The notes under the pieces: generated by a model | Told to the model about the DNA's origin: nothing | What the model saw: only the letters and a program-made list of their open reading frames with translations | Databases searched by the model: none | Made by a program: the position numbers and the translations under genes | In this document: positions 12,766 to 31,216 of the stretch, one piece after another | Layout of the letters: every line of letters starts with the position of its first letter | Numbering within the stretch: position 1 is the stretch's first letter | Source of the DNA: an uncultured Clostridium sp. | GTDB lineage: Bacteria > Bacillota > Clostridia > TANB77 > CAG-508 | Reading direction: 5' to 3' | Length of the DNA stretch: 64,000 nt | Assembly (NCBI GenBank): GCA_900552655.1 | Contig: USAE01000001.1 | Coordinates: 3,392 to 67,391, forward strand

Positions 12766-12796
12766 CGGGATTCGGGGACGGTCCTTAAAATCCCGG
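12766..12796. repeat. GC-rich palindromic REP-like element, copy A (reverse orientation). It sits inside the glycan operon between two co-directional GT genes.
   Basis: CGGGATT-CGGGGACGGTCCTTA-AAATCCCGG, a 7-bp outer stem, followed by T7 on the plus strand. It is related to the copies at 19039, 55402 and 58399, and to the degenerate copy at 48918. Confidence 0.7.
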
Positions 12797-12860
12797 TTGC
12801 TTTTTTTGCTTCTAATATATTTTTTAAGAGCCCATAACGCTTCTTGTTTAAAGTGAACTT

Positions 12861-13958
12861 TTAATAACGTCCCCAAAGTTCATTTAACTTTTCATATATT
12901 TTGTTATTATATTCTTCTGCATCAAATTTTTTGGTTATTTCGTAGCCTTTTTCTATGTATTGTTTCATGGCTTTATAAATTTCGTTTTCATCTTTTTCTA
13001 CAACTATTCCATGTCCTTCTATCTGCTCAGAATCTGAAACATTTGTAGTTATAATCGGCTTTTGCATTACAAAAGATTCTAAATATACTACTGGATAACC
13101 TTCATAATCTGAAGATAAGACTACACAATCTGCTAATTTAAAATATGGATATGGATTTTTCTTTCTTCCTAAGAAAATAATTTCTTTTTCTAATCCTTTT
13201 TCTTTTACTTGTTTTCTGTAAAGCTCTGTATCTGGTCCATCGCCTATAAATATTATCCTAAATTTTTTATTATCTTTTTTTAGTTTTTCTGCTGAATAAA
13301 TTACTCTTGTTAACTTCTTTTGTTTTTCATCATGTCTTCCCACATTTAAAAATGTAACCACATTTTCTTTTTTTAAATCATTTATAGGTTCTTCAGCTTT
13401 ATTTAATATTCGTTTATAATTTATTAAATTATTACATACATAAACTCTATCTTTTAATTTTGGAAAAGCTTTTATAAAACTCTCTTTTCCTTCGTTTGAA
13501 ACAAATACAATATTTTTAAATTTTGATATTTTCCTTTTATAAAAAAAATCTTTCATTTCTTCTATATTATTATTGTATAAAGATAGATAATCAGCATGTC
13601 CCCATATAGCATTATTCTTCGAGCATGTTCTTGCTATAAAGCTTGATGGTATGGAATATGTCGCAAAACTTGCTGAAAAATCAAATTTATTTTTGTATTT
13701 TTTTATAAATTTATATCTTTTTACTAAATTACTTATTTTTCGTTTAATTACATTCTTTTCATTTGATGGTGCATATTCTATTATATTTATATTTGGAGAA
13801 ATTTTATCTAAAAAAACTCCCTCTTTTTTTTCTAAAGCAATTGTTATTTCATAACCTTTTTCTAGCAAAAAATTTGTAAGAGTTACAAGCGATGTTTCTA
13901 TTCCACCTAGGTCTAAATTATATGCTGCAAATAATATTTTTTTCATACAAGATTTCAT
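12861..13958 (-). CDS. Glycosyltransferase family 4.
   Basis: MKSCMKKILFAAYNLDLGGIETSLVTLTNFLLEKGYEI...GRHDEKQKKLTRVI...IFIGDGPD...KNPYPYFKLADCVVLSSDYEGYPVVYLESF. Confidence 0.85.
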   Translation of the reverse strand: MKSCMKKILFAAYNLDLGGIETSLVTLTNFLLEKGYEITIALEKKEGVFLDKISPNINIIEYAPSNEKNVIKRKISNLVKRYKFIKKYKNKFDFSASFATYSIPSSFIARTCSKNNAIWGHADYLSLYNNNIEEMKDFFYKRKISKFKNIVFVSNEGKESFIKAFPKLKDRVYVCNNLINYKRILNKAEEPINDLKKENVVTFLNVGRHDEKQKKLTRVIYSAEKLKKDNKKFRIIFIGDGPDTELYRKQVKEKGLEKEIIFLGRKKNPYPYFKLADCVVLSSDYEGYPVVYLESFVMQKPIITTNVSDSEQIEGHGIVVEKDENEIYKAMKQYIEKGYEITKKFDAEEYNNKIYEKLNELWGRY

Positions 13959-18979: not shown

Positions 18980-19038
18980 CTTTGCTCACCTAATAATTGT
19001 ATTTAACACATTATATATTAATTTTTTCAAAAATTCAA

Positions 19039-19070
19039 CCGGGATTTTAAGGGCTGTCCCAAAATCCCGG
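19039..19070. repeat. GC-rich palindromic REP-like element, copy B (forward orientation). It sits immediately 3' of the ATPase gene.
   Basis: CCGGGATTTT-AAGGGCTGTCCC-AAAATCCCGG, a 10-bp outer stem. On the minus strand it is followed by TTGAATTTTTG, so it probably acts as the ATPase terminator. Confidence 0.7.
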
Positions 19071-22786: not shown

Positions 22787-22867
22787 TTTTTCCTCCTAAT
22801 TCTCGGGATTTAATAAAATTTAACCTTGCTAAATGTTCAAAATCTACCGATTTTTCCTATACAATAA

Positions 22868-29615: not shown

Positions 29616-29966
29616 TTATTTTGAAATTTCGTCCATTATTTCTTTACATTCGTTCCAATCTGAAGCTTTTATAAAATTATAGTCTTTAGATAATTTTGAA
29701 ATTATTTTATATGTATCATCATTAGAGTCTAAGTCTACCATTATTATTCCTTTACTTAATTCTTCTTTGCCATATAATAATTTACAAATTATATTTCTTG
29801 TAAAACATTCTATCTTTTCTTCTTGATTTTTCGCTGCTATTATTACATATATTCCATCTTGTTTAAATTTCGTACAAGAAAAATAATATCTTATTACTTT
29901 TGCAATCTCTATTAAACCATATAAAGCAAGCGTCCATAATATTGCATTTATTATAAATTCCTGCAT
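29616..29966 (-). CDS. Hypothetical small protein with an N-terminal TM helix.
   Basis: ORF of 116 aa with an RBS. No recognised domain. Confidence 0.4.
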   Translation of the reverse strand: MQEFIINAILWTLALYGLIEIAKVIRYYFSCTKFKQDGIYVIIAAKNQEEKIECFTRNIICKLLYGKEELSKGIIMVDLDSNDDTYKIISKLSKDYNFIKASDWNECKEIMDEISK

Positions 29967-30019
29967 AATATCACCTTCTTATATATTATATGATTTTTTT
30001 ATGTAATTGTGCTAATCTA

Positions 30020-30172
30020 AAAAGCGTACCTAAGCTTTTCTAGCAAATGTAAATTCTAAGAAAATCTAAGGTACGCCATAATTATCTAGTACAGAAATTT
30101 ATCCTACCAGGATAAATTTCTTACTATCTAAAAAAGCACTCTGCTAAAAAACAAAGTGCTACTATATATAAA
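30020..30172 (+). ncRNA. Copy 1 of a repeated approximately 150-nt structured element. It has hairpin 1 with an internal loop, a conserved CATAATT linker, a long hairpin 2, and a terminal hairpin. It is a candidate sRNA family.
   Basis: AAAAGCGTACCtaagcTTTTCTag..taAGAAAAtctaaGGTACGCcataatt atcTAGTACAGAAATTTATCCT-ACC-AGGATAAATTTCTTACTAtctaaaaaAGCACTctgctaaaaaacaaAGTGCT. Similar copies lie at 55446 and 58217, with compensatory stem changes between copies. Confidence 0.55.
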
Positions 30173-30211
30173 TGAAGAGGGCTATTCTTCTAAATTATAT
30201 TTCTAGTTTTA

Positions 30212-31216
30212 TTATTTTCTTGTTTTACCATCTAGAGCATCAAGATTATCTAATGCTTTACCTGTTCCTAATGCTACACAAGAAATAGCATCTTCAGCTA
30301 TCATTACATTTATTCCTGTCTTTTCTTGTAATAGTTTGTCTAGTCCATCTACTAAACAACCTCCACCTGTCATATATATACCTCTATCGCTTATATCTGC
30401 TGCAAGCTCTGGTGGTGTTTTTTCTAGTACTGAATGTACTGCATCTACTATCATCATTGCTGGTTCTATTAAAGCTTCTAGCATTTCGCTAGAATATACT
30501 GTAATTGTTTTTGGCAAACCTGTTGATAAATCTCTACCTCTTATATCCATCTCTACATCTTGTATTTTTGGATATACACATCCTATATTTATTTTTAAGT
30601 CTTCTGCTGTTCTTTCGCCTATCATTATATTATGTTTTCTTTTTATATATCTTACTATTGCTTCATCTAGTTTATCTCCTGCTATTTTTAAAGATGTACT
30701 TACAACTGATCCACCTAAAGAAATTACAGCAACATCTGTTGTTCCTCCACCAATGTCTACAATCATATTACCATATGGCTTAGATATGTCTATTCCTGCA
30801 CCAATTGCTGCTGCTATTGGTTCTTCTATTAAATACACTTTACGAGCTCCTGCTTGTGATGCTGCATCTATTACTGCTCTTTTTTCTACTTCAGTTACTT
30901 GAGAAGGTATACATATCATAATTCTTGGTGCAAATATAAATTTTCCACACACTTTATTTATAAAATATTTTAACATTTTTTCTGTTACTGTGTAATCTGA
31001 TATTACTCCATCTCTTAATGGTCTAGTGGCCACGATATTCCCTGGAGTTCTTCCTAACATTCTTCTCGCTTCTTGACCCACAGCAAGAACATCTCCAGAA
31101 ATTTTATCTACAGCAACAACTGCAGGCTCTCTTAAAACTATACCTTTGCCTTTTACATATGCAATTACTGTAGCTGTACCTAAATCTATTCCTATATCTT
31201 GACCAAAACCAAACAT
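30212..31216 (-). CDS. mreB: MreB/Mbl actin-like rod-shape protein.
   Basis: MFGFGQDIGIDLGTATVIAYVKGKGIVLREPAVVAV...DIGGGTTDVAVISLGG, the canonical MreB family. Confidence 0.9.
   Translation of the reverse strand: MFGFGQDIGIDLGTATVIAYVKGKGIVLREPAVVAVDKISGDVLAVGQEARRMLGRTPGNIVATRPLRDGVISDYTVTEKMLKYFINKVCGKFIFAPRIMICIPSQVTEVEKRAVIDAASQAGARKVYLIEEPIAAAIGAGIDISKPYGNMIVDIGGGTTDVAVISLGGSVVSTSLKIAGDKLDEAIVRYIKRKHNIMIGERTAEDLKINIGCVYPKIQDVEMDIRGRDLSTGLPKTITVYSSEMLEALIEPAMMIVDAVHSVLEKTPPELAADISDRGIYMTGGGCLVDGLDKLLQEKTGINVMIAEDAISCVALGTGKALDNLDALDGKTRK

Follow-up and report, generated by a model that had tools for sequence, protein, structure and literature searches.

The small structured repeats described from Firmicutes include bcr1 of the Bacillus cereus group, a group A repeat of about 155 bp with two independent stem-loops, compensatory changes and TTTAT direct repeats, which varies between strains, is transcribed and is thought to act by a mechanism akin to site-specific recombination (PMC3184786, PMC6542083, PMC6199540). 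SPRITE of S. pneumoniae is AT-rich and terminator-like and is found next to gene 3′ ends (PMC3049150), and the Enterococcus faecalis repeats (EFAR) are listed among the bacterial repeats that resemble MITEs, the miniature transposable elements with inverted repeats (PMC3733652). Terminators are also the landing sites of class C group II introns, which insert directly after Rho-independent terminators by structure, a "hiding" strategy (PMC7306698). Here, we analyze a 64,000-nucleotide stretch of DNA from an uncultured Clostridium sp. (contig USAE01000001.1, positions 3,392 to 67,391 of the forward strand), referred to below as the window, which carries three copies of a structured intergenic repeat. 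Originally predicted to be a three-copy family of plus-strand small RNAs (sRNAs), the repeat is best read as a non-coding, MITE-like element without terminal inverted repeats, resident in uncultured gut Clostridia, and it is very probably a mobile miniature insertion element targeted to the T-tracts of terminators.

The three related stretches lie in the same orientation at the places where they had been predicted: a 36-nt degenerate core pattern, with up to three mismatches, matches exactly these three sites in the window and none in 100 shuffles, and profile searches with a canonical and an all-subfamily model found no fourth copy there. Each stretch folds into two independent long hairpins, hairpin 1 and hairpin 2, separated by a 10-nt unpaired linker of the CATAATT type (z −6.7 to −10.1 compared with shuffles, on either strand). 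The predicted third, terminal hairpin, however, does not belong to the element. Homology among the window copies stops at ...TACTATATAAAAAA, i.e. ...TACTAT(A/C)TAAAAAA, the hairpin beyond this point differs in sequence at each window copy, and in at least 50 copies from other genomes a differing, unrelated hairpin comes next; at copy 1 it is a minus-strand terminator that is present also in strains without the repeat. The element itself comprises 104 bp plus an 8-bp direct repeat, not the approximately 150 nt first proposed, and reads on the minus strand as ATAGTAGG, hairpin 2, linker AGATAAATATGG and hairpin 1. Read directly, the two ends of the unit, GCGAGCCTAAG.. and ..CCTACTAT, show no inverted-repeat relation to each other in any subfamily.

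The clearest view of the insertion is provided by two loci, L032 (filled) and L085 (empty), whose flanks are 99.7% identical. The empty site reads ..GTCCTGC ATAAAAAA TATCAGTAGAG.., where ATAAAAAA is followed by TATCAG. In the filled site, ..GTCCTGC ATAAAAAA is followed by 104 bp (GCGAGCC ... CCTACTAT), a second ATAAAAAA and TATCAGTAGAG.. again. The insertion thus lies in what is, on the minus strand, the T-tail (TTTTTTAT) that follows the terminator hairpin TATCAGTAGGGAATATCTCTACTGATA, with 8 bp repeated. Variants of the 8-mer are mirrored at both ends of other copies, as CTAAAAA(A) at copy 1 of the window and as ACAAAAAA in L014 and L040, which is consistent with duplication of the target or with recombination inside a shared core of 8 bp. 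Copy 1 is also polymorphic, being present in six contigs and missing from four (the same-species strains L051/55/56/57); all of these encode an identical 334-aa MreB-like protein in DNA that is 97–98% identical, and the native terminator is kept in both forms. Among distant species, usable empty sites were not obtained from L004, which carries an MreB paralogue and not the orthologue, or from L034, L025 and L003, which have different neighbors. At copy 2 the sister lineage lacks the unit in a differing context from which no junction can be read, and neither copy 3 nor a candidate empty terminator at about 18.1 kb showed length polymorphism among the strains read. No metagenome locus aligns to the window at 85% identity or more, so that no position in it could be identified as an empty allele.

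What the sites have in common is their position. The element is located in the T-tract after a terminator hairpin, in the same direction as the terminator, so that a reader moving along the minus strand meets a gene with its stop codon and its own terminator hairpin, then TTTTTTAT, hairpin 2, the linker, hairpin 1 and a second TTTTTTAT. The second T-tract copy comes after hairpin 1, and the element thereby ends in a terminator-like structure of its own. Flanking sequences are unrelated from copy to copy and the genes that neighbor the copies are functionally unrelated; nearly every copy, however, is abutted at its hairpin-2 end, the plus-strand A-run, by a stable hairpin that is itself unrelated between sites. 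Over 45 nt the mean fold energy is −7.0 kcal/mol on the hairpin-2 side versus −3.4 on the other side, and at 69 of 87 non-redundant sites the stable hairpin begins within 6 nt of the hairpin-2 end. At 70 of the 87 sites the nearest gene on this side points into the element, with a median distance of 53 nt (the first set gave 36 of 48), and in about 80% of cases the element comes directly after the terminator of a gene in the same orientation. Compared with the 50% expected under random orientation, 70 of 87 corresponds to a nominal binomial p of ~1e-8, for sites that are not fully independent. In L001 (3602–3676), a TAG inside a truncated copy closes the groEL frame (..GGM Y stop), and hairpin 1 of this copy with its T-run forms the sole terminator-like feature behind groEL; in L023, a solo hairpin-1-like palindrome directly follows a stop codon.

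All window copies obey this arrangement, with copy 1 behind an MreB/Mbl-like gene, copy 2 behind rpmE and copy 3 behind a shared two-way terminator. Including both direct repeats, copy 1 spans 30017..30135 on the minus strand, where it reads TTTTTTAG / ATAGTAAG.. hairpin 2 .. linker .. hairpin 1 / TTTTTAG. The direct repeat on the hairpin-1 side (30017..30023) is CTAAAAA on the plus strand, and its variant C is mirrored in the other repeat. Hairpin 1 (30024..30076; GCGTACC../..GGTACGC) contains a conserved A.A mismatch and has a GTAA apical loop on the plus strand, while on the minus strand a T-run comes next, as in a terminator. The unpaired, conserved linker (30077..30086) is CATAATTATC, for a family consensus of C(C)ATATTTATC, and hairpin 2 (30087..30126; TAGTA-CA-GAAATTTATCCT / AGGATAAATTTC-T-TACTA) holds a conserved internal loop of the CA/C type. 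The direct repeat on the hairpin-2 side (30128..30135), CTAAAAAA, forms, when read on the minus strand, the T-tail of the intrinsic terminator native to the MreB/Mbl-like gene (30212–31216, minus strand). This terminator hairpin (30136..30160, minus strand), identified in a terminator scan, is the insertion target at copy 1 and lies outside the repeat. Just past it, in filled and empty alleles alike, TACTATATATAAA (30160–30172) resembles the hairpin-2-side end TACTATATAAAAAA and may be the footprint of an older event.

Copy 2 occupies 55444..55563 on the minus strand (hairpin 1 55452–55504, linker 55505–55514, hairpin 2 55515–55554), with degenerate direct repeats at 55444–55451 and 55556–55563, and abuts the native terminator hairpin (55568..55594, minus strand) behind rpmE (55654–55854, minus strand); a hairpin homologous to this terminator occurs at that place in the sister lineage that lacks the repeat. 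Copy 3 occupies 58215..58333, also on the minus strand (hairpin 1 58222–58274, linker 58275–58284, hairpin 2 58285–58324; direct repeats 58215–58221 and 58326–58333). It abuts a native two-way terminator (58334..58366, consisting of a hairpin at 58334–58360 and a T-run) that separates the convergent HD-domain and PBP5-like genes at 56960–58204 (plus strand) and 58435–59217 (minus strand).

The family is much larger than the three copies from which it was first proposed. One strict pattern detects 47 loci in approximately 15 genomes of uncultured gut Clostridia from human and rabbit gut, with at most seven loci per fragmented genome and several at contig ends; a looser pattern extends the family to at least 119 metagenome contigs, and profile searches of all fetched loci yield 162 copies with about 125 distinct core sequences. 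Contigs break inside the unit. Searches with the consensus gave no match in plasmids and phages by BLAST, and a scan of a viral-contig collection returned two matches, both due to chance. At least three subfamilies can be distinguished: A (with A′), B and C. Hairpin 1 has the sequence GCGAGCC.. or GCGAGTC.. in A and A′, CCAGAATT.. in B and CGGATTAC.. in C, and hairpin 2 has AGTAC/GTACT at its base in A and TCTAC/GTAGA in B and C. The plus-strand layout of A6, hairpin 1, linker C(C)ATATTTATCT, hairpin 2 and ATATAAAAAA is common to all subfamilies; in each of them TAAG/CTAA of hairpin 1 encloses an A.A mismatch, the apical loop of hairpin 1 is GNAA (in the plus-strand reading), and hairpin 2 has a CA/C internal loop. 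The two hairpins have no sequence relation to each other.

The units also occur in parts and in new combinations. Hairpin 1 is present alone in L001, L019 and L014, its 5′ half is gone in L123 and L140, and the tip of hairpin 2 is gone in L016 and L027. Comparison of L141 (4230–4420) with L167 (6562–6675) reveals an extra tandem unit of linker and hairpin 1 behind a full copy, and L095 (13011–13126) is a mosaic of a subfamily A hairpin 1 and a subfamily B hairpin 2. A retroposition-like origin, considered because of the hairpin-1-only copies, is weakened by the existence of copies that lack the other half (L123, L140). We also considered whether hairpin 1 represents a group II intron domain V, which is contradicted by the variation of its AGC-containing base between subfamilies, and whether the hairpin-2 end, which resembles an arm of the B. 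subtilis dif site (CCTAGAATATA), is such an arm, an idea that was dropped as there is no second arm. The family is old and diverse and not a recent duplication. Thus, where the original prediction named a recent MITE duplication as the alternative to an RNA family, the MITE-like nature is borne out and the recent origin is not.

Is the fold maintained? In a gap-free alignment of 111 copies (98 distinct rows), standard pairs fill 92.1% of the cells, versus 78.0% in shuffles and 36–50% when the partners are slid. Paired substitutions, noted before among the three window copies, are now seen far beyond what three copies could show, with changes on both sides in 22 of 40 pairs, and they hold up as covariation when more homologs are aligned: the score is 0.345 compared with 0.104 in shuffles, and none of 500 shuffles scores as high. 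Several pairs occur as three Watson–Crick types, e.g. columns 12–54 (CG 41, UA 33, AU 19), and RNAalifold predicts the same two hairpins from the first 42 copies. Stem sequences have diverged by compensatory changes among the at least three subfamilies, while helix irregularities, linker and end motifs are kept. The fold is therefore maintained, because pairing in both hairpins persists through many double substitutions.

The strand on which the fold acts is a different matter. The original prediction took two wobbles that pair only on the plus strand as a sign of a plus-strand RNA, which does not withstand the larger sample. Copy 3 has a plus-strand A.C that is a G.U on the minus strand, and a count over 124 distinct copies gives 55 plus-strand G.T cells versus 107 A.C cells, i.e. 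G.T on the minus strand, of which 32 come from one site. Fold energies are lower for the minus strand in 103 of the 124 copies with RNA parameters and in 107 with DNA parameters; within the window the minus strand folds better for copies 1 and 3 and the plus strand for copy 2. Because related copies share such counts by descent and nearest-neighbor asymmetries affect them, the wobble and energy counts only remove the argument for the plus strand and are no proof for the minus strand. The sequence itself gives a stronger indication: inside the unit, a hairpin directly followed by a T-run, namely hairpin 1, is present on the minus strand only, and on the plus strand A-runs flank both hairpins. 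In all subfamilies hairpin 1 is followed by T5–6 on the minus strand, the sequence signature of an intrinsic terminator, at which termination may occur.

Taken as a MITE-like element, the repeat is small, non-coding, multi-copy and dispersed at unrelated sites, and it shows presence and absence at orthologous sites together with an 8-bp duplication in L032/L085; the copy-1 junction is not clean. Several observations nonetheless weigh against a mobile element. L032/L085 is the only clean filled/empty pair found. The empty allele of copy 1 is no simple excision product, since the element's place is taken by about 27 nt and divergence is about 30% over the following 26 nt, so that deletion or allele replacement could explain this polymorphism. 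Movement must be slow, because insertions are common to genome pairs that are 91–97% identical in the aligned locus flanks. Terminal inverted repeats that match those of a parent insertion sequence (IS) were not found, and the usual MITE mechanism consequently does not apply; nor did approximately 1.45 Mb of loci contain a transposase or recombinase partner or a longer element that shares its ends. Full independence cannot be assumed for the site counts, as orthologous sites in related strains may have been counted repeatedly. Finally, the strong conservation of the unpaired linker, the GNAA apical loop in the plus-strand reading and the helix irregularities could stem from a function in RNA or in the host and not from signals for transposition.

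Two candidates for the partner were set aside. Solo ends that might have belonged to an autonomous element proved to be contig ends, deletions or diverged subfamilies. In L114 (724–2348; also in L168 and L178), a gene for a PF12784 PD-(D/E)XK "nuclease family transposase" is located between two same-orientation subfamily C copies. This gene looks incidental, as gene body and second copy are missing in the related L148 (7858–8577) and the window contains no such gene.

How could a unit without inverted repeats be moved? We infer a non-autonomous unit that would be mobilized in trans by an enzyme reading a folded hairpin with T6AT, probably on single-stranded DNA. The element's own hairpin 1 with T6AT would then mimic the chromosomal target, and integration might occur either by recombination between like sites within an 8-bp shared core or by a staggered 8-bp cut that duplicates the T-tract. 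The DNA distal to a terminator would be a safe landing site, and the host would be left with a tandem, back-up terminator or, between convergent genes, with extra structure in the 3′ untranslated region. A more specific version is speculative and, in our estimate, rather improbable: structure-guided, "terminator-homing" mobile DNA, in which a recombinase or nuclease recognizes any folded terminator hairpin with T6AT and recombines it with the mimic carried by the element (hairpin 1 with T6AT and the conserved A.A mismatch). If this were true, terminators would be generic attachment sites and portable terminators would spread through the genome.

The terminator mimicry raises the question of whether the repeat instead works as RNA. 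For a family of plus-strand sRNA genes, each with a promoter of its own and a transcript that would run across hairpin 1, the linker and hairpin 2 to stop at the third hairpin, one can cite the covarying two-hairpin fold, the conserved unpaired linker, the GNAA apical loop of hairpin 1 on the plus strand and the plus-strand T-run that many adjacent native hairpins also have, at which such a transcript would terminate. There is also a resemblance to a known sRNA. Rfam 15 gave no match at gathering thresholds in the whole window, riboswitch, leader and intron models included, in agreement with the prediction that the repeat belongs to no known family, and permissive scans around all copies returned only chance-level microRNA and snoRNA matches and the Enterococcus sRNA EF3314_EF3315 (RF02634) on copy 1. 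This sub-threshold, full-length match (30 bits versus a cut-off of 100, E 2.8e-5 in a 300-nt search) covers window positions 30026–30160 on the plus strand, aligns the junction ..AUCUAAAA.. and the terminator, extends in part across the native terminator and has no counterpart at copies 2 and 3; the EF3314_EF3315 locus of Enterococcus might itself be a repeat inserted before a terminator. Against an sRNA gene with its own terminator, the third hairpin is non-homologous, pre-exists in alleles without the unit and, for copies 1 and 2, carries a minus-strand T-run; it is the terminator of the neighboring gene. No promoter-like site was found in or at the units, none is conserved with them, and plus-strand upstream flanks are unrelated between copies. 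An independent plus-strand sRNA gene would thus be without a conserved promoter and without a terminator of its own. As wobble pairs and fold energies do not favor the plus strand either, and the unit is polymorphic as an insertion with an 8-bp duplication, we consider this part of the original prediction very unlikely. Still less credible is a 5′ leader or attenuator of the downstream minus-strand gene, with hairpin 2 as sensor or anti-terminator and hairpin 1 with its U-tract as regulated terminator. The commonest context (50 of 87 sites) does have a minus-strand gene after the unit as well, and hairpin 1 with T6 resembles an attenuator terminator; but the downstream genes are functionally unrelated, the gene on that side is convergent at 25 of the 87 sites, the hairpins are independent with no alternative anti-terminator pairing, some strains lack the unit with the downstream gene unchanged, and no Rfam riboswitch or leader model matches. 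Moreover, in both filled and empty alleles the interval from copy 1 to the next gene's start codon contains a TATAAT −10-like hexamer (CATATAATAT, ~29985–29990, found by eye), within a region (29900–30260) where a consensus promoter scan gave no full match. The diversity of contexts has already largely refuted a leader, which we regard as extremely improbable.

A role for the minus-strand RNA that is kept by selection is a different proposition, compatible with a mobile origin, and we hold it to be possible, if somewhat doubtful. Here the unit would be co-transcribed by read-through out of the upstream gene and act as a back-up terminator (hairpin 1 with its U-tract) or as a 3′-end stabilizer or processing site (hairpin 2), which would be an exaptation as has been proposed for SPRITE, repetitive extragenic palindromes (REPs) and bcr1. 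The location of some 80% of copies directly behind the terminator of a co-oriented gene, the retention of hairpin 1 with T6 in every subfamily, the better folding of the minus strand, the groEL frame of L001 with no other terminator-like feature and the palindrome behind the stop codon in L023 all agree with such a role. They have to be set against the existing upstream terminator, which lets little transcription reach the unit, the existence of strains without copy 1, the lack of functional relation among the neighboring genes, and hairpin 1 itself, which with about 24 bp and a large irregular top is unlike ordinary terminators. Alternatively, the repeat might be a DNA site maintained by the host like REP/BIME, either bound by a nucleoid or topology protein or used for recombination, and spread by gene conversion. 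The conserved linker, helix irregularities that could be recognized features, the intergenic location and the module shuffling between subfamilies, where the L095 mosaic suggests recombination among copies, would suit such a site. A precise 104-bp insert with an 8-bp duplication at a T-tract and in strict orientation is, however, a sign of insertion that is unexpected from conversion, and we therefore find a host-maintained site very improbable. The reading as a mobile element targeted to terminator T-tracts is accordingly the one we retain.

Other repeats share these intergenic regions. A second family consists of intergenic hairpins with variable stems and the loop motif ..AAG(G/A)NNCGTCCC(C/A)AA.., e.g. 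CGGGATTTTAAGGAYCGTCCCAAAATCCCG, and often adjoins the two-hairpin element; in the window its hairpins lie at 12766–12798 (minus strand), ~12850–12885 (plus), 19037–19069 (plus), 55404–55436 (minus) and 58396–58430 (plus), and 34 more occur in the other loci analyzed. Directly beside an insertion site of the two-hairpin element, a 213-bp segment is enclosed by two hairpins of this CGTCCC family, which make up perfect 39-bp inverted repeats (L032 726–1016; L085 5329–5636; L012 1862–2161). Among close relatives this segment is found in opposite orientation, with 96% identity when inverted versus 75% when compared directly, and it has the appearance of an invertible DNA switch. A different insertion of about 130 nt is seen in a sister lineage directly after a terminator T-run, between rpmE and a MiaB-like gene (L069/L071/L072/L076 2818–2949; missing in L068/L073/L075/L077). 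It starts with TTTTT/ATTGTATAGTAAAAATC.., which contains the same TATAGTA motif, ends in a hairpin and TTTCTTAT, and gave no Rfam match; a degenerate 45-nt remnant of it lies directly after a terminator in the window (22821–22865, minus strand). Were terminator homing true, this family with its TATAGTA start would be a second user of the same machinery.

The repeat matters for annotation as well as for biology. In metagenome-assembled gut Clostridia its units are easily taken for sRNA genes, riboswitches or attenuators, and assemblies are broken by them; the family model lets them be masked or labeled. It is a well-resolved example of how a repeat that lacks terminal inverted repeats can have its insertion point set by a terminator hairpin and T-tract. 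Each insertion puts a second strong hairpin with a T-run behind a gene, and its presence or absence in a strain may alter read-through into the next operon. Target, ends and subfamilies provide handles for finding the enzymes that move Firmicutes repeats of the bcr1, SPRITE and EFAR type.

How, then, does the element relate to the systems already described? With class C group II introns it shares the niche behind terminators, the terminator's orientation and a preference for structure over sequence. These introns, however, are ribozyme and reverse-transcriptase retroelements of about 2 kb without target duplication, while the element has 104 bp, no ribozyme domains and an 8-bp repeat; its size, the repeat and the lack of a match to any intron model exclude it from this class. 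Similar to REP/RAYT and IS200/IS605-derived elements, which are extragenic hairpin repeats recognized as folded single strands, it may be read as a folded strand, and hairpin 2 of subfamily A starts with GTAG on the minus strand, as REPs do (PMC3733652). Yet GTAG is replaced by CTAG in subfamilies B and C, the unit is three to four times the length of a REP and its two hairpins differ, so that an assignment to REP (a 20–40-bp GTAG palindrome) or RAYT was rejected. No RAYT or TnpA gene was seen near the copies, RAYT not having been searched genome-wide. An IS200/IS605-derived element of the PATE kind would need similar subterminal hairpins at its two ends and integration 3′ of a short target with no duplication, whereas the hairpins here are unrelated; the mirrored 8-bp variants argue for a duplication or a shared core but alone are not conclusive.

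The closest known systems are bcr1, SPRITE and EFAR. EFAR units are reportedly modular, about 170 bp long, with two stem-loops and integrated at unrelated stem-loop sequences, an account ascribed to Venditti et al. in 2007. Their integration is reported to delete most of the targeted stem-loop, and from this the present element differs, its target hairpin being intact and the insertion lying in the T-tail. The sole link seen between the two is the weak RF02634 resemblance of copy 1, which is not evidence of kinship. SPRITE is AT-rich and about 105 bp long, has an A-run and a T-run at its ends and a long duplex followed by a T-rich tract, is enriched near gene 3′ ends and between convergent genes, has no matching IS and has been suggested to act as a terminator (PMC3049150), in all of which it resembles the element. 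Compared by description, SPRITE has one 18-bp duplex where two hairpins and a conserved linker are present here, and for SPRITE neither target duplication nor an empty site is established, in contrast to the one clean pair with an 8-bp repeat in L032/L085.

The nearest described repeat is bcr1. Both are non-coding, with bcr1-like dimensions of approximately 100–155 bp, many dispersed copies and a distribution that is not conserved between strains, and both have two independent, compensated stem-loops and a T-rich direct repeat, TTTAT in bcr1, which is contained in TTTTTTAT. By description the two are set apart by the length of the direct repeat, 5 bp in bcr1 and 8 bp here, and by the strict position in a terminator T-tract together with the hairpin and T-run carried by the element, which we did not find described for bcr1. 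As bcr1 is defined as specific to the B. cereus group and the hosts here are uncultured Clostridia, the repeat is by definition not bcr1. We class it as a new family within an already known type, the small structured insertion repeats, and not as a new category.

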